Below are positions 13,998 to 43,598 of a stretch of 64,000 nt of DNA, piece by piece. The notes below the pieces were generated by a model, which saw only the letters and a program-made list of their open reading frames with translations, had not been told where the DNA came from and made no database searches. Source of the stretch: a virus. The stretch is from IMG/VR virus record IMGVR_UViG_3300025121_000035, positions 20,044-84,043 of that record; one strand, given 5' to 3'. How positions within the stretch are numbered: the stretch's first letter is position 1; every line of letters starts with the position of its first letter. The position numbers were made by a program, and so were the translations under genes.

Positions 13998-16900
13998 ATG
14001 AAAAAAACATATAGTAAAATACTAAAAATTAATAAAAAAGGTAAGGGTAATGTATATGATTTTACAGTTCAAAATACACATAGAATTCTAGCTAATAATT
14101 TTTATACATCTAATTGTAGTATTAATCATCCTGATGCAGAAGATTTTATAGATGCTAAATTAGTAGCTGGTAAAGTAACAGGTGCTAATGTATCTGTTAA
14201 ATTAACTGATGAATTTATGAAAGCTGTAAAATCAGATTCAGATTATTATCAAACTTTTCCTATTAATTATGACATATCATCTTATACTGATAGATCTAAT
14301 CTTAAATATGGAGTTATAGAGGAACATAGTTTTCATAATATTGTAAATGATACTTTTGAAAAAGTTCAAGTTAAAAAAATCAAAGCTAAAGATTTATGGG
14401 AAAAAATTATTCATAATGCTTGGAAATCTGCTGAACCTGGTTTAATGTTTTGGGACACTATTGAAAGAGAAGCAATACCAGATTGTTATAAAGAGTTTGG
14501 TTTTAAGACAGTTAGCACAAATCCGTGCATTGTAGGAGATACATTAATTGCAGTTGCTGATGGTCGAAATTATGTATCAATAAAACAATTAGCAGAAGAA
14601 AATAAAGATATTCCAGTATATTCATCAGATGATAATGGCAATCTTGTTATTAAAACTATGAGAAATCCACGAATAACTGGATATAATAAACAAATTTATA
14701 AAATTACAATAGAAGGTGGTCATACAATAAGAGTAACAGATAATCATAAATTTATACTTAAAAGTGGTATTGATAAAGAAGCAAAAGATTTAAAATATGG
14801 TGATAGTTTACAAATATTAAATAAAGTTAATTATTTTGCTAAAAATAATTCAAATTCTTATTATTCACTATCATCTAATGGTAAAGGCTATAAGGAACAT
14901 CATCATATAGCTGAATATAATATTGGTCGTAAATTATTTGAAAATGAAGTTGTTCATCATATAGATTATATTGGTAAAAATAATAACCCAAATAATTTAG
15001 AAGTGATGACTAAAAAAGAACATGATACGTTACATATTAAAGATATGTTAAGTGATAAAAACCCATATCATAAAATGACTGATGATTGGAAATTTAATTT
15101 TGCATCACATCCTGGCGAAACAAATCCTAATTTCAGTGGATTATCAAATAATGATATTAAAAACCATGCAATTTTACTAACAAAAAAATTAAATAGAAGA
15201 TTTAGTAAAAAAGATTGGATTGATTATGCAAAAGAAAATAATTTACCACAATATTTTAGTTCATTTAGGTTATTTGATACAATTATATCATTATCTAAAT
15301 TAGTTGCTAGTGAACTTGATATTAAATTTATACATGATGATCCTAGATTAGTTAAATCTTATAATAATGCTTTAGATAATGGTTATAATGCTGAAATCAA
15401 AGATAATATGGTTATTGTTGAAAAAATATGTGAAAATTGTGAAGAATCATTTTGGGTAGATTACCAAAAAAGAGAAATATCATTTTGTTCACATAAATGT
15501 GCATTAAAATATATTAATAACAATAAAGAAATAGATATTAAAAGATCAAATTCATTAAATAATACTTATAATAAAAAAGGAGAAATAACTAAAGAAACAC
15601 AATTAAAAATTTATTCTGATTTAAAATTCGAATTAGGTAGAACACCTTTATTAAAAGAATGGGAAAATGAATGTAAAAATAATAATGTTCCTTTTAGACT
15701 AAAAACAAAATATGGGTTTAATTCATTTAAAAAAATAAAAGAATCTTCTGATTTTTATAACCATAAAGTAATATCTATTGAATTAGATGGTTTTGAAGAT
15801 GTTTATAACGGGACTGTTGATGATACACATAAATTTTATGCTGGTGGATTTGAAGAAAAAACAAAATCAGGTAAGTCGAAGACAATCAGTGTGTTACAAG
15901 AAAATTGCGGAGAGATTCCGTTAAATCCATATGATTCTTGCCGACTATTAGCTATAAATTTATATTCATATGTTGATAATCCTTTTACAAAAGATGCTAA
16001 ATTTAATTTTAAATTATTTAAAGAACATACTCAATATGCACAAAGATTTATGGATGATATTGTTGATTTAGAAATTGAAAAAATTGATGAAATTTTGAAA
16101 AAAATTGATGCAGATCCTGAACCTGAAGAAATGAAAATTGTTGAAAGAAATCTATGGATAAAAATTAAAGAAAAAGCTATTCAAGGTAGACGAACTGGAT
16201 TAGGTATTACTTCTGAGGGCGATATGTTAGCTGCACTTGGTATTATTTATGGAACACCTGAAGCAACTGAATTTGCAGAAAAAATTCATAAAACATTAAC
16301 AATAGAGGCCTATAAATCTACTATTATTATGGCAGAAGAAAGAGGTGCTTTTTTAGTATGGGATTTTGAAAAAGAATATAATAATCCATTTATTCAAAGA
16401 ATTATGGGTGAATTAGATGAAGATTTTTTACATCGTTATAAAATAAAAGGTAGAAGAAATATAGCATTATTAACTATTGCTCCTACAGGTTCTGTATCCA
16501 TAATGACACAAACTACTTCTGGTATTGAACCAGTATATTTAGTTTCTTATAAAAGAAAAAGAAAAATTAATCCTAATGATAAAAATGCAAGTATTGATTA
16601 TACTGATAGTGAAGGAATAGCTTGGGAAAGATATAATGTATTTCATCCTAAATTTAAAATTTGGGCTGATATTAATGGTTATGATTCAACTAAATTAGAA
16701 AAATTAACATCTGAAGAATTAGATGTAATAATTAAAAAATCACCTTACTATAAAGCTACATCTAATGACGTTGATTGGGTCGAAAAAGTTAAAATGCAAG
16801 GTGCTATTCAAAAATGGGTTGATCATTCAATATCTGTAACAGTTAATTTACCAAATGATGTTACTGAAGATATAGTATCAAAAGTATATCAAACTGGTTG

Positions 16901-17552
16901 GGAATATGGATGTAAAGGTATTACAGTATATCGTGATGGTTCTAGAGATGGTGTTTTAGAAACTAATAAACCTGAACAAAAAGTTAATATTTTTAGAGAA
17001 ATTAATGCACCACGTAGACCTAAAAATCTTAAATGTGAAGTTATAAGATTTAATAATAAAGGTGAAAAATGGATTGGTTTTTTAGGTCTTTTAGAAAATA
17101 AACCTTATGAAGTTTTCAGTGGATTATTAGAAGCTGTTAATATACCTAATTATGTAGATTATGGTGAAATAGTTAAAATAAAAAAAGAAGAAGGTGAAAT
17201 AAATTCTAGATATGATTTTAAATATATTGATAAAGATGGTTATACTCAAACATTTAATGGATTATCTAGAGCATTTAATCGTGAATATTGGAATGTTGGT
17301 CGTATGATAAGTGGAATTTTAAGACACGGTATGCCTTTACCTAATGTTATGAGAATTATTGACAAATTAGATTTTGGAGAAAATTCAAATGATATAACTT
17401 CATGGAAAGCTGGTATTAAGAGAATGTTAAAAAAATACATTAAAGATGGAACTTCTGTTCATGGTTCTAAATGTCCTCAATGTGGAAATACAGAATTGAT
17501 GTTTAAGGAAGGGTGTGTTAGCTGCGAATGTGGTTGGAGTAAATGTGATTAA
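13998..17552 (+). CDS. nrdJ: 39-aa C-intein plus class II RNR C-part containing a second, contiguous intein
   Basis: VYDFTV...YTSN|CSINHPD; STNP|C...QEN|CGE; RRTGLG, TIAPTGS, KGITVYRDGSR and a C-terminal CPQC..C..C Zn ribbon. Confidence 0.92.
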   Translation: MKKTYSKILKINKKGKGNVYDFTVQNTHRILANNFYTSNCSINHPDAEDFIDAKLVAGKVTGANVSVKLTDEFMKAVKSDSDYYQTFPINYDISSYTDRSNLKYGVIEEHSFHNIVNDTFEKVQVKKIKAKDLWEKIIHNAWKSAEPGLMFWDTIEREAIPDCYKEFGFKTVSTNPCIVGDTLIAVADGRNYVSIKQLAEENKDIPVYSSDDNGNLVIKTMRNPRITGYNKQIYKITIEGGHTIRVTDNHKFILKSGIDKEAKDLKYGDSLQILNKVNYFAKNNSNSYYSLSSNGKGYKEHHHIAEYNIGRKLFENEVVHHIDYIGKNNNPNNLEVMTKKEHDTLHIKDMLSDKNPYHKMTDDWKFNFASHPGETNPNFSGLSNNDIKNHAILLTKKLNRRFSKKDWIDYAKENNLPQYFSSFRLFDTIISLSKLVASELDIKFIHDDPRLVKSYNNALDNGYNAEIKDNMVIVEKICENCEESFWVDYQKREISFCSHKCALKYINNNKEIDIKRSNSLNNTYNKKGEITKETQLKIYSDLKFELGRTPLLKEWENECKNNNVPFRLKTKYGFNSFKKIKESSDFYNHKVISIELDGFEDVYNGTVDDTHKFYAGGFEEKTKSGKSKTISVLQENCGEIPLNPYDSCRLLAINLYSYVDNPFTKDAKFNFKLFKEHTQYAQRFMDDIVDLEIEKIDEILKKIDADPEPEEMKIVERNLWIKIKEKAIQGRRTGLGITSEGDMLAALGIIYGTPEATEFAEKIHKTLTIEAYKSTIIMAEERGAFLVWDFEKEYNNPFIQRIMGELDEDFLHRYKIKGRRNIALLTIAPTGSVSIMTQTTSGIEPVYLVSYKRKRKINPNDKNASIDYTDSEGIAWERYNVFHPKFKIWADINGYDSTKLEKLTSEELDVIIKKSPYYKATSNDVDWVEKVKMQGAIQKWVDHSISVTVNLPNDVTEDIVSKVYQTGWEYGCKGITVYRDGSRDGVLETNKPEQKVNIFREINAPRRPKNLKCEVIRFNNKGEKWIGFLGLLENKPYEVFSGLLEAVNIPNYVDYGEIVKIKKEEGEINSRYDFKYIDKDGYTQTFNGLSRAFNREYWNVGRMISGILRHGMPLPNVMRIIDKLDFGENSNDITSWKAGIKRMLKKYIKDGTSVHGSKCPQCGNTELMFKEGCVSCECGWSKCD
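14526..15905 (+). mobile_element. Contiguous 460-aa intein with HNH endonuclease, inserted at the RNR thiyl-radical Cys (NP|CGE)
   Basis: CIVGDT start, VTDNH block B, HHIDYIGKNNNPNNLEV..KKEH HNH motif, VYNGTV block F, ending QEN|C. Confidence 0.88.
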
Positions 17553-20698: not shown

Positions 20699-20816
20699 GA
20701 TAATCAATAGTTAAAGAAAACCATTAAATATTTAATTTAATGGACGATTTTTATCAAAACAGGCTTCAATTATTTAATATATAAAATAAAACAAAAAAAA
20801 TAATAAATTAGAAATT

Positions 20817-21002
20817 ATGGAAGAACGTATAACATTAGATCAACTTATTGAATTAGTCGAAGAAGTTAGAAAAGATTATGATAAGTTTTATGATAAAGGA
20901 GTTAAAGCTGCCGCTACTCGTCTTAGAAAAGGATTACAAGATATAATCAAAATATCGAAAGATATGAGAGTTCAAGCAATCGAACACAAAAAATCATTAT
21001 AA
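20817..21002 (+). CDS. Histone H1-like (Hc1 family) nucleoid protein
   Basis: D..KF..KG.KAAATR.RK.LQ.I......R pattern of the short Hc1-like proteins found in Bacteroidota. Confidence 0.75.
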   Translation: MEERITLDQLIELVEEVRKDYDKFYDKGVKAAATRLRKGLQDIIKISKDMRVQAIEHKKSL

Positions 21003-21005
21003 AAG

Positions 21006-21040
21006 AAAAAAAGGGATATATAATTTATATCCCTTTTTTT
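21006..21040. terminator. Bidirectional rho-independent terminator
   Basis: A7-GGGATATA...TATATCCC-T7 between convergent genes. Confidence 0.85.
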
Positions 21041-21041
21041 G

Positions 21042-21057
21042 TGTTCCACGTGGAACA
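21042..21057. promoter_or_regulatory. parS-like palindrome TGTTCCACGTGGAACA
   Basis: Perfect 16-bp palindrome matching the chromosomal parS consensus TGTTNCACGTGNAACA. Confidence 0.8.
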
Positions 21058-21088
21058 ATTATTTAATTTTTATCTTTTTTATATAAAT

Positions 21089-21135
21089 CGTCAAATTCAT
21101 CTATTAAACTAAAGATTTATCGATTTTCTTTGACG
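21089..21135 (-). mobile_element. Orphan IS200/IS605-type left-end hairpin
   Basis: CGTCAAAGAAAATCGATAAATCTTTAGTTTAATAGATGAATTTGACG on the minus strand closely resembles the left end at 40223-40268. Confidence 0.6.
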
Positions 21136-32123: not shown

Positions 32124-33465
32124 ATGAACTACAACTAAACTAAAGATTTAGTTGTTTCTTGGGCTGAACCTGTAACCAGTTTCATATCTCCACAAGCGTA
32201 TATTTCTGCTGTTCCAGCAGTATTATTTTTTACAAAACTAAACTTTTTAATATTTGTTGCTGCATTTTGATCCCTATTGTGTTTTGTATTACAATTAGGA
32301 CAAATCCATTCCCTATCAGATAATTTCAAATTTGATTTAATATACCCACAACAAGAACACATTTTAGAAGAAGGTTCAAATTGACCAATTCTAATGATAT
32401 TACAACCATACCATTCACTTTTGTAATCCAAATACAAATTGAAATTACTAATTGATATATCAGATAATGATTGTGATAATTTATGGTTTTTAATCATATT
32501 AGATGGTTTTAATGTTTCTAAACATATTGTATCATATGTGGTTACTAATTCTTTTGATACTTTATGTAAAAAATCATTCCTTTTATTTGAAACTTTTTCA
32601 TGAATAATAGATAATTTTTTTACATATTTTTTTCTATTATTTGATCCTTTTACTTTTTTTGAAACTTTCCTTTGAATCCTTTTTAATTTTTTTAATGACT
32701 TTTTAAGATTCTTTGGATTTTCAATTTCAGTTCCATTTGATAATACAGCAAATGTTTTAATTCCCAAATCAATTCCAACTGCTTTATCTTCACTAATTGG
32801 TTTCTTTTTTGGTAATTCACTTGGTATTTCTACTAAAATAGAAATGAAATACTTACCTGTTGATGTTCTTGTTATTGTTGATTTTTTAGTTATTCCTTCA
32901 AATATTCTATCAATTTTAATTTTAATTGATGATTTGAACTTCGGTATATCTAATTTTTCATTTTCAAAATCCACATAAGTATTTTGTGGTATTCCAAATG
33001 ATTGTTTATTATCTTTTTTTGATTTGAACTTTGGAAATCCACCTTGCTTTTTGAAAAACTTTGTATATGCGTTATCAAGATTTTCTAAACTATATTGTAA
33101 AGATTGGCTATTTACTTCTTTTAACCAAGATGTTTCTTCTTGTTTTTTAAGAATTGGTAAATCTTTTTGTATATCAAATCTTGATAATCCTACACCAGTT
33201 TCTTGATATGTTTTGTTTTTTTTGTTCAACGCATAATTGTATATCCATCTTGCACAACCAAAATGTTGATGTATCAATTCTTTTTGAATTGAATTAGGAT
33301 ATATCCTATATTTGTAAGTTTTCAAAATCATATCTATTATACTATATATTTTAGAATTAGTTTCATTTTTTTCTAAAATTATTTTCAACTTTAGAATAAT
33401 TATATATAATTATTATTACAATTCATCTACCTAAACTGAAGATTTAGGGGATTTCTTGTAAAAGA
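32124..33465 (-). mobile_element. IS200/IS605 family (IS1341-type, tnpB only) element
   Basis: Left-end hairpin CCTAAATCTTCAGTTTAGG downstream of TTAT; right-end hairpin CAACTAAATCTTTAGTTTAGTTG followed by TAGTTCAT; tnpB lies between them. Confidence 0.82.
32135..33331 (-). CDS. tnpB: RNA-guided endonuclease TnpB
   Basis: YKYRIYP HTH, GIDLGI (RuvC I), ICLETL (RuvC II), SSKMCSCCG...CPNC Zn finger, RDQNAATNI (RuvC III). ATG 33331 is the likely start. Confidence 0.93.
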   Translation of the reverse strand: MILKTYKYRIYPNSIQKELIHQHFGCARWIYNYALNKKNKTYQETGVGLSRFDIQKDLPILKKQEETSWLKEVNSQSLQYSLENLDNAYTKFFKKQGGFPKFKSKKDNKQSFGIPQNTYVDFENEKLDIPKFKSSIKIKIDRIFEGITKKSTITRTSTGKYFISILVEIPSELPKKKPISEDKAVGIDLGIKTFAVLSNGTEIENPKNLKKSLKKLKRIQRKVSKKVKGSNNRKKYVKKLSIIHEKVSNKRNDFLHKVSKELVTTYDTICLETLKPSNMIKNHKLSQSLSDISISNFNLYLDYKSEWYGCNIIRIGQFEPSSKMCSCCGYIKSNLKLSDREWICPNCNTKHNRDQNAATNIKKFSFVKNNTAGTAEIYACGDMKLVTGSAQETTKSLV

Positions 33466-33508
33466 ATAATTAAATTTTAATATATAGAAAAAAATATATA
33501 TATTATAT

Positions 33509-38731: not shown

Positions 38732-40827
38732 TCATAATTCTATTTGGCTTAAAACTTCTAAACATAATTCGTTAGGTACAATGGATCTTTGTTCAGCTCC
38801 TTTTAGTCCTTGTGTTCCTGTTTTACTTCCTCTTGGTGCAGCAATGTGACAAGTCATACCATTTTTACACATTGGTCTAGGTGTCCATAATTCATTATTA
38901 GTCCAGATATCTGTCGGTTTCATGCGATCATCCCCATACTGACAATATGTAACTGTATTTCTAATTGGTAAATCTATCATAATAGGGAATTTTCTTAACA
39001 TACCTCTAGGGTTTTCGATGTACCAATATTTAGGTTTAAAATAATTAATTAATTCTATTGTTTTTTCAACTAATTTATAACCAATTAAAGCTGTTTCAGA
39101 TTTAGGTTCTCTTTCTTTTGTCCAATGATGTGATACAGAAGCAATTGAGAAGGACGTACAGTTATGTACTATTAAATTTTTAACAGTATATGTATTGTCT
39201 TCTTCTACTTCTAAATTATATGTTTTTAATGATACATTTAATTTTTCTTTTTTATCAAATTGTAACCATATGTAATTATTATCAATATCATATTTTATAT
39301 TTTTACAATTTATACTAAATTTAATATTATAAAGTTTATTTGTTCTATCATCTATAATCAAAGTTGTTGGTATTTTATATACTTTATTTATACAATATTG
39401 AATACCGTATGCTAATTTTTCACTAGTTGTTGATAAATTATATTTTCCTTTTTTTATAGTATGACCATCAGAATCTATATAACCGTTTATAAATGAAATT
39501 AAATATTCATTTGGTAAATTGAATATATCAGATGTTAATTCTTTATTTGGTGATCCTATTCCAAATCGTTTAAAATAATGATATAATTCTTTATTATAAA
39601 AAATAAATTGGTTTACCGTTTTTTTAGTTTTAGATAAATTATATTTATTAAAAACTAATTTTATTTTATTTTCTAAATAATCTGTTTTTTTTTTATTACA
39701 ACATATATTAACTTCTTCACACCCATTATCTTTATGTATACTTATCCACCCATCACCAATAAATCTTCCTACAATATACCAAAAATTAATATCATTAATA
39801 GGTAGGGTATTAATTAATTTTTTAATATTATTTTGTTTTTGGTATTGGTTACTTATACCTTGTTCATAATAACAACCTTTGTATATTGGTAGTGATTGTT
39901 CTTTATTTAAAGGAATAGCAACGTATGGTGATTCTATAATTGCTTTACTTTTATTTTTACTTATATTTACTTCTATATCACCTACATTAACCCAATCTGG
40001 TTCTGTAAAATAATATTCATATTTTCTTAATTTATTATTCCATTTACGTTTTTTGTATTTAATATAATACGGGTGATTTCCAGTTACTATTGTGTTTTTA
40101 GTTTGTCTTGTATTAAAATTATAACAATCATTAGAATGATTTTCATATATTTTTGTTACTTTTCTAAATCTATTTTTATGTGTTAATACTTGATCACCAA
40201 CTACAATATTTTTTATATGTTCCGTCAAAGAAAACCATTAAATCTTCAGTTTAATGGATGAATTTGACTAAAATGGACTTTAAATATTTAATATATATAT
40301 ATAATAATTAAATAAAAGTTCTTTGAAATGATTTAATGGTTTTGATCTACAAACCTAGATCAAGTAAAATCATTGAGGTTCAAGTATGTAAATACTTGAT
40401 AGTTAAGTATCTATACGAAAACCAAGGTAGATGCAAAATATAAAAAATGTTTAAAAATATTTTTTAACTGTGGAGCGAGTGACCGAATTCGCAGTCTAAA
40501 CAAAAAAACGGTGAGGCGTCAACATTAGTTGAGTCTATGAAACGTTGAAACACATTAATATTTATTTAATGTGTAGTTCATTTCTTTATAACCATTATTT
40601 GTTAATACTAATTCATCTTCTCCAAAACAAGGCGGAGATGCCCATATAATATCTGGTTGCCAGGGAACTTTATTAACATCAAATTCTAATAAATCAACTG
40701 TATAATCAGTTTTAAATTTTTCTAAATAGTCTGATGAAAATACTTCATAACCAAGTTCTTTTGCAGCTTTCCCTATTGATTTAGTACCAGCAAATAATTC
40801 TAGTACTTTTATTTTATGAATTTCCAT
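38732..40827 (-). pseudogene. C5 cytosine DNA methyltransferase with a LAGLIDADG intein, interrupted by a 365-bp insertion (pseudogene or split gene)
   Basis: Motif I ELFAG, motif IV SPP|C and motif VI YIENP. The intein runs CFGEDE...HN|C (39161-40629) with GRFIGDG and GYIDSDG. Removing 40217-40581 restores the frame (NGYKE|IKNIVVGD). Confidence 0.85.
40217..40581 (+). mobile_element. Non-autonomous IS200/IS605-derived element (MITE/PATE-like) with an internal structured RNA
   Basis: Preceded by TTTAT. Left-end hairpin CCATTAAATCTTCAGTTTAATGG; right end CACATTAA..TTAATGTG-TAGTTCAT. No target duplication and no ORF. Confidence 0.8.
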
Positions 40828-41051
40828 TTATTAATATCCTTCTTATTTTTGCATAAACTTCTAAGTCTCCTGGCTTTTCAGTATCTATAACTACTTTGTC
40901 TACTAGAATGGATATTATTAATTTTAAATCTTCGACTGTATTAACTAAATCCCAATTAATATCATACGTTTTAATCACTATGAAAAATTATTTTTTATAA
41001 TATAAATAGTTTCTTATTTATAATATAGACAATAAATTATAATTTGTTTAT

Positions 41052-41101
41052 ATTGTCCCTTAAAAGAAAACCGTTAAATTGTTAGTTTGTGTGTAGTTCA
41101 T
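41052..41101 (+). mobile_element. Fused left-end/right-end IS200/IS605 remnant of about 50 bp
   Basis: TTTAT|ATTGTCCCTTAAAAGAAAACCGTTAAAT...GTGTAGTTCAT. Confidence 0.5.
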
Positions 41102-41118
41102 AAAATTACAAAATAAAT

Positions 41119-41556
41119 TTAAAGATTTTTTATAATAATTTTAATTTTTTTGTTTCTTTCTATCATTTGTCTATCATTTAATATAGATTCTATTACATTT
41201 ATATATAAATTGATTTTATCTGTTTTTAATCTACTTTTTTGAACTGTTAAAATATTTTCTAAATGATTAGTTGTACAATTAATTAATTTAACCCATTTTA
41301 AAGAATTATGTTCTAAATTATTCGATATACCATATGTACCCCAAACTAATTTTTCTTTAAGTTCTGATAAAGAAGAATCATCATATAAATCTAATAATTT
41401 TATTTTATCTTCACAATTCACAGGGCAACCATATCTTATATAATCATTACCACCATCAACATAATATCAATCTTTTTCTATATAATCATGTACAGATCTT
41501 GAAATTAAAATTGTACCGTCTGGTAATTCTATTGCATTTTGTATAATTTGTTCCAT
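41119..41556 (-). pseudogene. Phage hypothetical protein with an in-frame TGA
   Basis: The frame from ATG 41556 reads ...SRSVHDYIEKD*YYVDGGNDYIR and continues into the 41119-41421 ORF. The TGA is at 41467-41469. Confidence 0.6.
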
Positions 41557-41601
41557 TATATTAAAAATAAAAATGGTAAGACTAAATTATCTTACCGTTT
41601 G

Positions 41602-41977
41602 TGGAAAAGCAGGGAATCGAACCCTGGTGTTTACTAAATTAAAATTAATATTCTACATGCTTATAATATTTTTTAATAATTCGATACTTTACAAAATATT
41701 CAAACATACAAGTATAAAATAATTGTTACACTATAAAATATCGATTTCACAATCATTATCAATAAGTTTTTGGTTAATTTCTATTACACTGCTACAAGTT
41801 CACCTTCTTGTAAAACAGATTCGTTTCCAAATCCGACAGTCAATGCGTCACTAATCTTATTAGCCGCATTAAATAAATTCGCGTTTGCGTTTATTGTTTT
41901 GCCTTTTTTAAAGTGTTCTGACAAACACTACATGCTAATTAACCCCGTTTTAATAAGTCGATGCCATTTTCTTTCCC
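41602..41977 (-). ncRNA. ssrA: tmRNA (SsrA)
   Basis: Acceptor stem GGGAAAG/CUUUUCC-A with a G3-U wobble, 5' AUCGAC, T-arm CAGGGUUCGAUUCCCUG, 3' UAAGCAUGUAG, and a tag ORF at 41888-41784 after AUAAAC. Confidence 0.9.
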
Positions 41978-42058
41978 ATAAAATTAAAGAACTTTTCACT
42001 ATATATTATATATAGTAAATTAAAAAAGTTTATTTTTTCTAAATACAAATATAATAAA

Positions 42059-42526
42059 TTATTGATCTAAATCAAAATTTTCTAATGTTTTTTTCTTTAA
42101 TTTTTTAAATTTTTCATCAATGTCAATAATACTAGCTATTAATTCTTTTTGCATTTCTTCATCAGTAATACCTATATGTTTTTCTTTAATATTAGTATAT
42201 AACGTTCTTTGATCTTTATCTAATTTTTTAATATTATTATCATATTCAATAATATATTTTTTTAATTGTTCTATATTTTTACTAAGTTTAAAAGTTTTTT
42301 CTTTATATGCTTTATCATTTTTAATAATATCTTCATCATTTAGTTCATCTTTAATGGTTTCTATTATCGTTAAATATTCTTTCATTTCTCCTTCTTTTTC
42401 AACAATATAAAATAAGTTAGTTAAATATTCTTTTCTTATTCGTCTTGCTTCATTAATATATAATTGATCTATCATAATTCTATTTATCTTCGTTTTTATC
42501 TTCGTTTTTATCTTCGTTTTTATCAA
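42059..42526 (-). CDS. Coiled-coil hypothetical protein (true start probably about 42475)
   Basis: ORF track; the N-terminal KIKT repeats come from overlap with the neighbouring gene's 12-nt repeat. Confidence 0.6.
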   Translation of the reverse strand: MIKTKIKTKIKTKINRIMIDQLYINEARRIRKEYLTNLFYIVEKEGEMKEYLTIIETIKDELNDEDIIKNDKAYKEKTFKLSKNIEQLKKYIIEYDNNIKKLDKDQRTLYTNIKEKHIGITDEEMQKELIASIIDIDEKFKKLKKKTLENFDLDQ

Positions 42527-43598
42527 CAGATGCTTTCTTAGTATATTTTCTTTTTGATTTTTTTTCTTGTTCGTTTTTCATATCATCATCAGTTTCTTCT
42601 TTAAGATATTCATCTGGAATATCATCTCCAAAAATTTCTTTAATTATTTGTTTTTCAACTTGTTCTTCAATAATTTTAATATTTGTATATATATTATTAA
42701 TAATTATTTTTTTATAATATTGTACAATATCACCCTCCATATTTTCAACCATCATTTTAACAAATTCTGGTTTACCTATTTTATCTTTAAATTCTATATT
42801 TACAGAAATATCGTGTTTTCTTTTAAATGTACTGAAAACCATTTCATTAGGATCCAATTGTGATTGTTGTACTTGTGGTTGATTAAGATTATTTGTTTGT
42901 TGTGATTGAGAAACACTTGTAGGTTGTCTTTGTAATCTTTTCAACCTTCTTTTATTTGCTTCTTCTTCTCCATATGCCAATTTTTCATTTTCATATAATT
43001 CATCTATATTTACTATTGGTTTAATAATTGGTTGTGGTTTAGGTTGTGTTTTATTTTGTTGATTTAAAAAATCTTGGTAGGCATCATCATCATTATCATA
43101 TACCTTATATTGTGATACATTTGTATTAGTATTATTTGGTATTTGTTGAGGACTATTATCTTGTCTTATTATAGCTGATTCATTCATATTAGGTATAAAT
43201 TGGTTTTGTATAGGTTGATTTTGCACTATATTGGATTGTGCTACCTTAGTTTTATTTGTAGTATTTTTAAGTATTTCTGAACCAATATTTTCATTTTTAA
43301 CTTTACTTATATCAACAGATTTAATTTTATTTAAAATATCCGTATTTACTGCACTTGTTCTTAAAAATGCTTCTGGATCAATTTCATTTGATTGAACATT
43401 TGATTGAACATTTGATTGAACATTTGATTGAACATTTGTTGATTCACTAACTACATTATCAAGTATACCATAATATTTTGAAAAAATATTTTTTTTAATC
43501 ATTTGACCGTCTGATAGTTGATAAAATGCTTCTTCAATATTATCTTTAGCTATTGTAACTGCTTTATGAGTAGGATCATCTTTTCTATAATAATGCAT
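42480..43598 (-). CDS. Hypothetical protein with Q/N-rich low-complexity linker
   Basis: SNVQ x4 and DKNE x3 12-nt repeats. Confidence 0.7.
   Translation of the reverse strand: MHYYRKDDPTHKAVTIAKDNIEEAFYQLSDGQMIKKNIFSKYYGILDNVVSESTNVQSNVQSNVQSNVQSNEIDPEAFLRTSAVNTDILNKIKSVDISKVKNENIGSEILKNTTNKTKVAQSNIVQNQPIQNQFIPNMNESAIIRQDNSPQQIPNNTNTNVSQYKVYDNDDDAYQDFLNQQNKTQPKPQPIIKPIVNIDELYENEKLAYGEEEANKRRLKRLQRQPTSVSQSQQTNNLNQPQVQQSQLDPNEMVFSTFKRKHDISVNIEFKDKIGKPEFVKMMVENMEGDIVQYYKKIIINNIYTNIKIIEEQVEKQIIKEIFGDDIPDEYLKEETDDDMKNEQEKKSKRKYTKKASVDKNEDKNEDKNEDK

Follow-up and report, generated by a model that had tools for sequence, protein, structure and literature searches.

In the window analysed here, a stretch of 64,000 nucleotides from a virus record, a short C5-methylase-like gene on the minus strand carries a LAGLIDADG intein, and an element of 365 bp (40217-40581) separates the first 16 residues of this intein from the rest. 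As shown here from reading frames and homolog alignments, the element is nested in the intein and the intein in the methylase. The gene is most likely plainly broken, which makes this an ordinary disruption in an unusual nested setting. Three outcomes had been offered in the original prediction, namely a new split intein, an excision switch and a gene that is simply dead, and the last of these is the best supported.

We suggest the following course of events. A non-autonomous PATE, i.e. a gene-less derivative of the IS200/IS605 family, would have inserted by single-strand 'peel-and-paste' 3' of a TTTAT motif, on the strand opposite to the methylase and at a site that happens to be codon 16/17 of the intein. 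The outcome would be a 90-aa N piece (66 extein, 16 intein and 8 junk residues) and a promoter-less, poorly startable 498-codon C frame, and the methylase would most likely not be made from the present DNA, with loss of its function. The element was presumably mobilised by a TnpA acting in trans and encoded either by the host or within the unsampled ~88% of the phage genome, and the RNA of its plus strand could guide a TnpB against the vacant site, as omega RNAs carried by PATEs are known to do. We also propose that the methylase is a dispensable accessory gene and that the hit was tolerated for this reason.

Intein and host gene

The extein of the host gene amounts to 66 + 142 aa and the intein to 16 + 352 = 368 aa, which are distributed over two ORFs as follows.

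40827..40555, minus strand: N piece ORF, 90 aa, ending in IWASPP, CFGEDELVLTNNGYKE and MNYTLNKY before the stop
40630..40827, minus strand: N-extein of the C5-cytosine-methylase-like gene, 66 aa, with motif I (LELFAGTKS) and the end IWASPP; aligns with the intein-less P0046 and P0063
40582..40629, minus strand: intein codons 1-16 (CFGEDELVLTNNGYKE), including Cys1; colinear with P0002-P0004
40555..40581, minus strand: element-derived tail of the N piece, 8 codons (MNYTLNKY) and a TAA stop, from the ORF and junction reading
40228..38732, minus strand: C piece ORF, 498 aa, with a TTG start at 40228-40226
40217..40228, minus strand: element-derived head of the C piece, 4 codons (TTG ACG GAA CAT), from the in-frame start listing
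39161..40216, minus strand: the other 352 intein codons, with block B TGNH, the LAGLIDADG motifs VGRFIGDGW and INGYIDSDGH, block F YNLEVEEDNTYTV and block G LIVHN
38732..39160, minus strand: C-extein, 142 aa and stop, whose first residue is the catalytic Cys (CTSFSIAS)

The translation contains the putative methylase motifs LFAGTKS (I), SPPC (IV) and ENPRG (VI). After CTSFSIAS, the C-extein shows ENPRG, QYGDDRMKPTD, CKNG..CH and SIVPNELC in this order, and across residues 62-234 its identity with the intein-less P0063 is 56%. PF00145 was matched by all four intein-less homologs that were scanned (31.9-47.4 bits, cut-off 22), within profile positions 1-118 of 324 only; in the Pfam scan, the two methylase halves of the window scored below the PF00145 threshold, and P0063 gave no Pfam match at E 0.001 or better. 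A sequence search against solved structures found no relative of the methylase, and no second methylase copy was found in G000 (84 kb), G001 (112.6 kb) and G002 (10.2 kb).

The intein lies directly before the catalytic Cys, ends in LIVHN and has the Cys of the PPC motif as its +1 residue. It is of class 1 by its features, namely Cys1 (CFGED...), TGNH in block B, and VHN followed by C with the nucleophile at +1, and all intein splicing blocks and extein motifs are intact. Intein-less alleles exist as well, and P0046, P0063 and P0122 run through ASPPC(T/E)(H/S)FS uninterrupted. LAGLIDADG_3 (PF14528) was matched with 33.7 bits (cut-off 22.5); the PF14890 splicing-domain model stayed below its cut-off (35.8) for both the C piece (18.2 bits) and the intact P0002 (28.1 bits). 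The homologs P0002-P0004 carry 14 aa in the endonuclease part that are missing from the intein of the window, and the only solved structures matched by sequence, and hence its nearest solved relatives, are the V-ATPase inteins 7qsu/7qss (E 1.4e-5), with a match over the endonuclease part.

The original prediction had placed the insertion after residue 16 of a 368-aa LAGLIDADG intein at the catalytic PC cysteine, and this was confirmed by the ORFs, the sizes and the homolog alignment. Removal of exactly 40217-40581 fuses GAA to ATA and joins GYKE to IKNIVVGDQVLTH (GYKE to IKNI) in frame, and the rejoined sequence has the length and register of GYKKIKDIHINDKVLTH (P0002), GYKRIKDIHIDDEVLTH (P0003) and GYTKIKDIKIGEYVLTH (P0004) in three uninterrupted homologs. 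The claims that the N part ends 8 codons into the element (40581-40555), and that an in-frame TTG at 40228 from the element opens the rest of the intein and the C-half of the methylase, were likewise borne out. An alternative border with TATAAA/TTTATA as a target-site duplication was rejected, as it would cost the intein 3 residues in comparison with P0002-P0004 and is also contradicted by the element copies, the borders of which are fixed after TTTAT and after TTCAT. The uninterrupted intein of a relative (G003/L015) has TTTAT at the equivalent site. Since TTTAT is so frequent in this genome of 22.6% GC (1409 sites in 84,043 bp, or 16.8 per kb), the choice of the target needs no special explanation.

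The 365-bp element and its relatives

To judge from its hairpins, its borders, the lack of a target duplication and the ends that it has in common with a TnpB IS of the window, the element is an IS200/IS605 derivative without a protein (PATE/MITE), as had been predicted. The description as a MITE inside an intein inside an MTase holds for the nesting but not for the wording, because this is a hairpin-ended PATE without terminal inverted repeats and not a classical MITE. The features concerned are listed below.

40217..40581, plus strand (top strand antisense to the methylase): protein-less IS200/IS605-type element (PATE/MITE), 365 bp, 3' of TTTAT (40212-40216) and ending in GTAGTTCAT
40224..40268, plus strand: left-end subterminal hairpin, GTCAAAG...CCATTAAA / TTTAATGG...TTTGAC, inverted repeat I4; DNA fold -8.3 kcal/mol, z -2.56
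40546..40581 (hairpin to 40580), plus strand: right-end hairpin and cleavage motif, GAAACACATTAA...TTAATGTGT AG TTCAT, where the element ends; DNA fold -8.7 kcal/mol, z -4.73
41052..41101, plus strand: 50-bp miniature of the element family, with left-end and right-end pieces fused, TTTAT upstream and the end GTAGTTCAT
32124..33468, minus strand: TnpB-only IS, with the ORF 33388..32135 (417 aa), the right end ...TTGTAGTTCAT at 32124 and a left border placed by analogy at ~33468

At the right border, all five aligned copies end in GTAGTTCAT and the sequences diverge immediately beyond it; at the left border, all three full copies have TTTAT upstream and start with ATG. A target duplication is absent, and the right flanks of the three full copies differ (TTCTTT, ATAATA and TATGTA). 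The termini ATGTTCC... and ...GTTCAT do not form an inverted repeat, and the ORFs within the element do not exceed 35 aa. Its left-end hairpin is homologous to that of the TnpB IS, and similar hairpins occur at four further places in the record.

The element is present in three full copies (in the window, in G001/L026 and in L030), three copies truncated by contig starts (at the starts of G000, G002/L028 and L029) and a 141-base right-end fragment (L027). Their sources are a single metagenome assembly and the record of the window, and the right-end border is identical throughout. Because several copies occupy different loci, the element family has been mobile. The copy in the window does not look obviously fresh, because it is ~14% divergent from the G001 and L030 copies, although the L029 copy is 94% identical to it across 213 nt. 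Left-end fragments at g14020 and g41133 also lie 3' of TTTAT, and the fragment at g40756 does not. Two further candidates were rejected. GTAGTTCAT at g8782 was not accepted as another right end, as it is within coding sequence and without a hairpin, and the L030 copy was not accepted as a second gene disruption, as the frames on either side do not join in frame.

The plus strand of the element folds with -94 kcal/mol (z -6.96) and the minus strand with -69.1 kcal/mol (z -3.84). Among five element copies, 2 of the 29 predicted pairs are compensatory, and the plus strand has several G-U pairs. Such a strongly structured stretch could raise the idea that the transcript loses the 365 bases, by a self-splicing intron or an IStron-like mechanism, which would give a whole mRNA. 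However, in the Rfam scan of the element no family came near its gathering score, and introns of neither group I nor group II were matched up to E 10. The strand that folds better runs antisense to the gene, other copies are located outside genes (the G001 copy is intergenic), and the ends are those of the IS200/IS605 type. The identity as an intron or IStron was rejected because of the strand asymmetry and the lack of a covariance-model match, and we give almost no credence to removal at the RNA level.

Occurrence of the interrupted allele

The exact 90-aa N piece with its element-coded tail was found on seven contigs from JGI/IMG, Logan and ENA, and the 498-aa C frame, which starts inside the element, on three; every assembly has the identical interrupted allele. 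Record 2 of run X1 contains 543 letters of flank and 37 letters of the element with zero mismatches. Under a bridging rule of 31 letters, this record alone bridges a junction, and the other contigs enter the element by 24-28 letters. Stretches that no contig covered and the runs X11-X13, each with a small share, were left out of this comparison. None of the runs listed as containing the sequence is recorded as an RNA run, which does not bear on expression. A repeat misplaced into the gene could be imagined, as several element copies are located at contig ends and assemblers do break there, but the agreement among three sources and the mismatch-free junction make an assembly artefact extremely improbable.

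Uninterrupted relatives are more distant. Among 5.8 billion proteins, the best one has 75% identity, and the nearest relatives range from 67 to 75%. The three nearest intein-bearing homologs are contiguous, and none of the 15 small N-piece homologs inspected (of 35 matches) ends in a short intein N-fragment.

Expression of the two pieces

A nascent atypical split intein would require that the N piece, with its 16-aa N-fragment and 8-aa tail, and the C piece started from the TTG at 40228 associate and trans-splice to an active methylase of 208 aa. Several features are compatible with this. The break after residue 16 is close to the N-proximal 'S1' site, the splicing residues are complete (Cys1, TGNH, the HN end and Cys+1), and no stop interrupts either frame (90 and 498 codons), in a genome prone to stops. 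The open frames and intact motifs would fit a recent insertion, and also continued selection.

However, the expected expression of the C piece argues against it. The N piece retains its native ATG; the C piece has in-frame starts at codons 1 (TTG), 290 (TTG) and 410 (ATG), and only the codon-1 TTG, which follows an in-frame TAA at a distance of 4 codons, would give a complete C piece. TTG is rare as a start, and here it lies within the 3' arm of the left-end hairpin stem (RNA fold -12.1 kcal/mol). The long ORFs of the phage have ATG behind A-rich leaders, with a Shine-Dalgarno motif in 2 of 65, whereas the C piece is preceded by a leader that is rich in U and engaged in pairing. On these features, the C piece seems poorly suited to translation. 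The sigma-70 promoter scan of the minus strand of the element gave 5 sites against 5.5 expected, which is not above chance, and the promoter motif AAAAGTTCTTTRA, also present in the tmRNA upstream region, was discarded with 3 matches at one mismatch against 2.26 expected. In addition, transcription of the plus strand of the element may yield RNA that is antisense to the N piece.

The intein itself also differs from what a split form would lead one to expect. Natural split inteins are usually without an endonuclease domain, and the domain is retained here. With the nearest relatives contiguous and the small homologs unsplit, the claim of a new split intein fares poorly, and trans-splicing to an active methylase is in our view very unlikely. 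Plain disruption of the gene is preferred.

TnpB, TnpA and excision

The TnpB of the window has HTH, OrfB_IS605 and TNB domains. Three Pfam domains exceed the cut-off (PF01385 with 102.7 bits, PF07282 with 69.8 bits and PF12323 with 66.4 bits), and its translation includes the stretches GIDLG, CLETL and NRDQNAA, which we take to be its RuvC catalytic motifs. The right end of this IS is laid out like that of the element, with GAAACAACTAAA...TTTAGTTGT AG TTCAT at its border and TGTAGTTCAT as its terminus. The 3' region of the IS and the 365-bp element align convincingly only in the last ~40 nt, and by this comparison with the resident tnpB IS the element has no scaffold that derives from, or corresponds to, the 3' end of a cognate tnpB. 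A second TnpB, in G001, has a right end unrelated to the element. As the 3' regions differ, neither the tnpB IS of the window nor the G001 tnpB was accepted as the parent IS of the element, and no other parent was found. By analogy, the guide of the element is expected to be the 16-20 nt beyond its right end; with TTTAT in front of it, this sequence would match the vacant intein allele.

The insertion could also be a reversible knock-out. A Y1 TnpA encoded by the host or in an unsampled region of the phage genome would scarlessly excise the element from single-stranded DNA during replication and restore the intein-methylase in some genomes, and the resident TnpB with the element RNA would counter the loss by cutting the vacant site. 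The ends of the IS200/IS605 type are intact, precise removal restores the frame, the family has moved among loci, and the window contains a TnpB IS whose ends have the same structures. Scarless excision that restores an interrupted lacZ is described for the IS200/IS605 family in PMC10055086. Moreover, the contig depth of run X1 is 47-57 at the element ends and 6-7 in the flanks, as a sum over all contigs and not a copy number, and this excess suggests many copies.

Against this, no Y1 TnpA (PF01797) was found in G000, G001 and G002, ~207 kb in total. The CheckV completeness of these records is 12%, 23% and 3%, respectively, which puts the whole phage genome at ~0.5-0.7 Mb, and the search extended to neither the host nor the contigs of 232.9 kb and 55.1 kb. 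The empty-site joint, in which 40216 is connected directly to 40582 (...TTTTTTAT followed by TTCTTTATAACC...; GAA to ATA on the coding strand), was absent from the contigs of all four runs, where contigs cannot reveal rare variants. The protein collection held no near-identical uninterrupted protein, and there was no sign of a regulated switch as opposed to occasional loss. The excision switch of the original prediction, for which both tnpA and the empty junction had been named as evidence to look for, is not supported by either search, and we consider reversible excision unlikely. Plain disruption again remains the preferred reading.

Discussion

The gene described here is a clean and well-delimited case in which a single phage gene unites three selfish layers, namely a hairpin-ended mini-transposon, a homing-endonuclease intein and a methylase. 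In the open-access papers searched, we found no report of an IS or MITE inside an intein. The case also points to IS200/IS605 derivatives and TnpB elements that are active in very large AT-rich phages, and it offers a natural substrate for the question of whether the RNA of a gene-less element can recruit a TnpB encoded elsewhere in the phage genome to police the insertion site. The origin of split inteins is usually ascribed to genome breaks, with natural intermediates lacking, and here both halves are intact. In the most far-reaching reading, the LAGLIDADG intein, contiguous before the insertion, would now work in two pieces, of which the N-fragment has 16 residues, and trans-splicing would still assemble the methylase. 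The element could in addition contribute a guide RNA with which the resident TnpB cuts those intein alleles that are uninterrupted, and the split form would thereby be driven. We see only a slim chance that this is right. If the working split intein were true, it would be a natural snapshot of the birth of an atypical split intein; if neither trans-splicing nor TnpB policing holds, the gene is an ordinary pseudogene.

Compared with known systems, the arrangement has several likenesses and differences. First, natural atypical split inteins are described for the phage terminase genes AceL-TerL, GOS-TerL and Cat-TerL, with N-fragments of 25-37 aa, and engineered S1 splits have N-fragments of 11 aa; about half of the engineered atypical splits are reported there as active (PMC11766414). 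The present intein is similar in its very short N-fragment (16 aa), its Cys1/Cys+1 chemistry and its phage setting. In contrast, the terminase inteins are presented in the same source as conserved two-gene systems with proven trans-splicing and C-fragments of 104-115 aa without an endonuclease, whereas here a transposon break in one lineage would leave a 352-aa C-fragment with a LAGLIDADG domain, and it is doubtful whether the C piece is expressed.

Second, IStrons, which combine IS605/IS607 with a group I intron (PMC10690162, PMC13521648), are likewise elements of the IS200/IS605 type in a gene, with the same conflict between keeping and removing the element. The present element differs in having no intron module and in being antisense to the gene, and for these reasons a rescue at the RNA level is not expected.

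Third, IS1341-type TnpB-only elements and the retention of elements by TnpB/omega-RNA 'homing' are described in PMC8612924 and PMC10055086. The window carries such an IS; the guide function, the TAM and the pairing with this TnpB are putative.

Fourth, the PATEs according to PMC10055086 are gene-less IS200/IS605 derivatives, for example beside ISGst elements in Geobacillus stearothermophilus, often with omega RNAs, and are acted on in trans, with TnpA excision being scarless; they are also described in Haloquadratum walsbyi (PMC3119063). The present element differs from them in its source, which is a jumbo-phage-like virus record with a very high AT content and not a cellular genome, in a 3' scaffold that resembles that of the resident TnpB IS over the last ~40 nt only, and in that no TnpA has been found so far. 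In its remaining features it is a PATE. It codes for no protein, carries a subterminal hairpin at either end, and has neither inverted terminal repeats nor a target duplication; it is inserted 3' of a fixed short motif (here TTTAT), with a similar motif (TTCAT) closing its right end; its ends are in common with a TnpB-bearing IS of the same genome; and its top strand is structured in the 3' part, which is the usual place of omega RNAs.

Organization of the interrupted gene

The nesting of an element in an intein in a methylase-like gene is real and neatly delimited, and the open-access literature searched yielded no description of an intein that carries an insertion sequence. It probably reflects an ordinary PATE (a gene-less IS200/IS605 derivative) that recently knocked out a dispensable methylase and is fixed in the sampled population.

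40827..40555, minus strand: N piece, 90 aa
40217-40581: inserted element, 365 bp
40228..38732, minus strand: C piece, 498 codons from TTG 40228

The N piece reads MEIHKIKVLELFAGTKS...IWASPP, CFGEDELVLTNNGYKE and MNYTLNKY before its stop, and the C piece reads (L/M)TEH, IKNIVVGDQVLTH...LIVHN and CTSFSIAS... to its end. A protein search gave 312 proteins at E ≤0.001 from 6307 candidates, and the best three non-self matches are uninterrupted (585, 582 and 585 aa; 75%, 72% and 67% identity). When the element-coded residues are set aside, the two pieces abut without gap or overlap in the alignment to uninterrupted homologs, with the joint GYKE/IKNI against GYKKIKDI, GYKRIKDI and GYTKIKDI in three of them. 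The computed sizes are 66 aa for the N-extein, 16 + 352 = 368 aa for the intein and 142 aa for the C-extein. Because intein-less homologs (P0046, P0063 and P0122) run ASPPC(T/E)(H/S)FS without interruption, the intein is placed by alignment directly ahead of the predicted catalytic Cys, which would be the +1 nucleophile. In Pfam, LAGLIDADG_3 scored above its cut-off in the C piece and the intein splicing model below; the nearest relatives of solved structure are V-ATPase inteins. The original prediction was thus accurate on the anatomy: an insertion after residue 16 of a 368-aa LAGLIDADG intein (sizes and LAGLIDADG_3 match), an intein at the catalytic Cys (homologs contiguous across the site), an N piece ending with eight element codons (reading frame and alignment), and a TTG opening the remaining intein and the methylase C half, as a frame open to 38732.

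In its 39161-40216 part (minus strand), the window intein lacks 14 residues (~FNLIEGRKIYFRHK) that are present in the uninterrupted homologs P0002-P0004, near ...DDRT/NKLY... in the endonuclease part; decay of the homing endonuclease may already be under way. P0122, a 148-aa protein on a 684-nt contig with 88% identity to the window N-extein, is intein-less and reads ASPPCTSFSIASVS unbroken; therefore, judged from its sequence, intein-free versions of a close relative occur in nature.

As for the host gene, neither window half reached the PF00145 threshold in Pfam, all four scanned intein-less homologs matched it (31.9-47.4 bits) only over profile positions 1-118 of 324, and the conserved C-half segment CKNG..CH..APRGSKTGTQG matched no solved structure by sequence. 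The label supported is thus only C5-methylase-like, and extends to neither specificity nor substrate.

Phage setting

13998-17552, plus strand: ribonucleotide reductase large-subunit ORF, 1184 aa; HNH-endonuclease matches at residues ~279-510, reductase match at 637-1183
41599-41977, minus strand: tmRNA gene, 60.4 bits (gathering score 47)

The record, of 84,043 bp (22.6% G+C; CheckV completeness 12%), contains the window as bases 20044-84043 and seems to be one piece of a very large phage, since the window encodes a UvsX-like recombinase, ribonucleotide reductase, helicase, tmRNA and TnpB. Over the whole record, a Shine-Dalgarno 4-mer core precedes 2 of 65 long ATG ORFs, below the 5.9% background, and the leaders of phage genes are A-rich, which suggests a host initiating without Shine-Dalgarno pairing. 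In the reductase ORF, the HNH matches precede the reductase match and may represent an endonuclease insertion or another intein. Upstream of the tmRNA, 38 nt (41984-42024) share 82% identity with element-internal 40287-40324, AAAAGTTCTTT included; the count of the motif common to both was not above chance. A 59.8-kb relative (G003, locus L015; CheckV 8%) carries an uninterrupted intein-methylase; window ORFs 42059-42475 and 42480-43598 have homologs upstream of it, with their order conserved.

The element and its family

41052-41101, plus strand: 50-bp miniature of fused left and right ends; TTTAT upstream, ending GTAGTTCAT
L027 contig, 1-290: right-end fragment with just the final 141 nt of the element, 87% identity
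33388..32135, minus strand: TnpB gene, 417 codons; PF01385, PF07282 and PF12323 all above cut-off
20712-21135 (40755-41178 of the record): two left-end-type hairpins in opposite orientation, bracketing an ORF, a hairpin and a palindrome
L012 (55156-58353 of related record G001): second TnpB type, 406-codon frame; TNB domain 84.6 bits; no relation between its right end and the element

The longest ORF of the element is ≤35 aa, a hairpin lies close to each end, and no target duplication is present. At the right border, 5 of 5 aligned copies finish with GTAGTTCAT, directly beyond which their sequences differ; at the left, TTTAT precedes and ATG begins all three full-length copies (window; G001, locus L026, where the copy is intergenic; L030). 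Three more copies are cut by contig starts (this record, L028 in G002, and L029). The left-end hairpin that borders the TnpB gene is a homolog of the element's own, and at the right end the two agree in layout and in their final bases (GAAACA-stem-loop-stem-TGT AG TTCAT). By sequence, such features define IS200/IS605 elements and PATEs; the MITE proposed originally stands as a non-coding repeated mobile element, now reassigned to an IS200/IS605-derived PATE by its borders, hairpins and TnpB-type ends. TTTAT is found at the same intein position in uninterrupted L015 and occurs 1409 times in the record, so the choice of insertion site needs no special explanation.

The 50-bp miniature lies in the spacer upstream of the methylase, ~225 bp from its start. 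The L027 fragment comes directly after an apparent ORF end and would be a right end standing alone or else a copy that was truncated. At 20712-21135, three features lie between the hairpins: a short ORF (MEERITLDQLIELVEEV...), a hairpin resembling a terminator, and the palindrome TGTTCCACGTGGAACA. Behind the first of the bracketing hairpins comes a stretch of the TTATTTAATATATA type, which the 365-bp element also has; an IS end may here have donated a promoter, or the arrangement may be a composite cassette. Since the L012 TnpB is of another type, at least two TnpB lineages appear, from their sequences, in these related phage contigs.

The plus strand of the element, antisense to the methylase, is predicted to fold at -94 kcal/mol (z -6.96), and the minus strand at -69.1 (z -3.84). 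In the 3' part, both sides changed in 2 of 29 predicted pairs across five copies, with several plus-strand G-U pairs. These features fit the place that omega RNAs take in TnpB elements, and PATEs reportedly often have omega RNAs used in trans by TnpB of other elements (available text of PMC10055086). Such an RNA is plausible. Three points count against it: no Rfam family came near its threshold for the element, scaffold similarity to the resident TnpB element is limited to the last ~40 nt, and the ends of the second TnpB in G001 are unrelated.

Fate of the interrupted gene

Among trans-splicing, restoration by excision and a dead gene, the fates originally considered, the dead gene is best supported, by the poor C-piece start and by the interrupted allele alone being seen. 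In IS200/IS605 elements, Y1 TnpA cleaves on the 3' side of both a short target motif and a similar motif at the right end, and joins the flanks again scarlessly (available text of PMC10055086), and TnpA supplied in trans could occasionally reverse the insertion. We consider this unlikely: the proposed tnpA search found no PF01797 match in this record, G001 or G002, and the proposed empty junction (40216 to 40582) was absent among the 3 joints found in 4 runs, in contigs, which cannot reveal rare vacant sites. This check covered the contigs of 4 of 14 runs (6 studies, all as contigs; 13 of the 14 contain at least part of the stretch), with 31 letters required for bridging. One record (run X1, record 2) bridged the left junction, and the others extend 24-28 letters into the element. 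In X1, depth over the element ends is ~8x that of the flanks, a summed value and not a copy number, which suggests many copies. Seven contigs from three sources carry the 90-aa N piece together with the tail that the element encodes, 3 carry the C frame (identical except for the written start residue), the protein collection searched holds no near-identical uninterrupted protein, and no second methylase copy is present in this record, G001 or G002; thus the interrupted allele is the only one seen in the sampled contigs and proteins.

A natural split intein with a 16-aa N-fragment is known, and the window retains every splicing residue and two open frames. Even so, a working split intein is a long shot. 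The complete C piece has a single possible in-frame start, TTG 40228, with an in-frame TAA four codons upstream and later starts only at codons 290 (TTG) and 410 (ATG). In the left-end hairpin (RNA fold -12.1 kcal/mol), this TTG is part of the 3' arm, its leader is U-rich and paired whereas those of phage genes are A-rich, and no promoter signal above chance was found on the element minus strand. Furthermore, no relative has the split form: the three closest homologs are contiguous, and none of the 15 inspected small N-piece homologs (35 matches, 38 candidates) ends in a short intein N-fragment. A dead methylase-like gene remains the preferred reading.

Comparison with known systems

The element resembles a PATE in its absence of coding capacity, its end hairpins, the lack of target duplication, the 5' TTTAT and the ends common to the resident TnpB element. 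The break lies near the N-proximal site used by engineered splits and natural atypical split inteins; in the available text of PMC11766414, the N-fragments are 25-37 aa in natural atypical split inteins and 11 aa in engineered ones, whereas that of the window is 16 aa.
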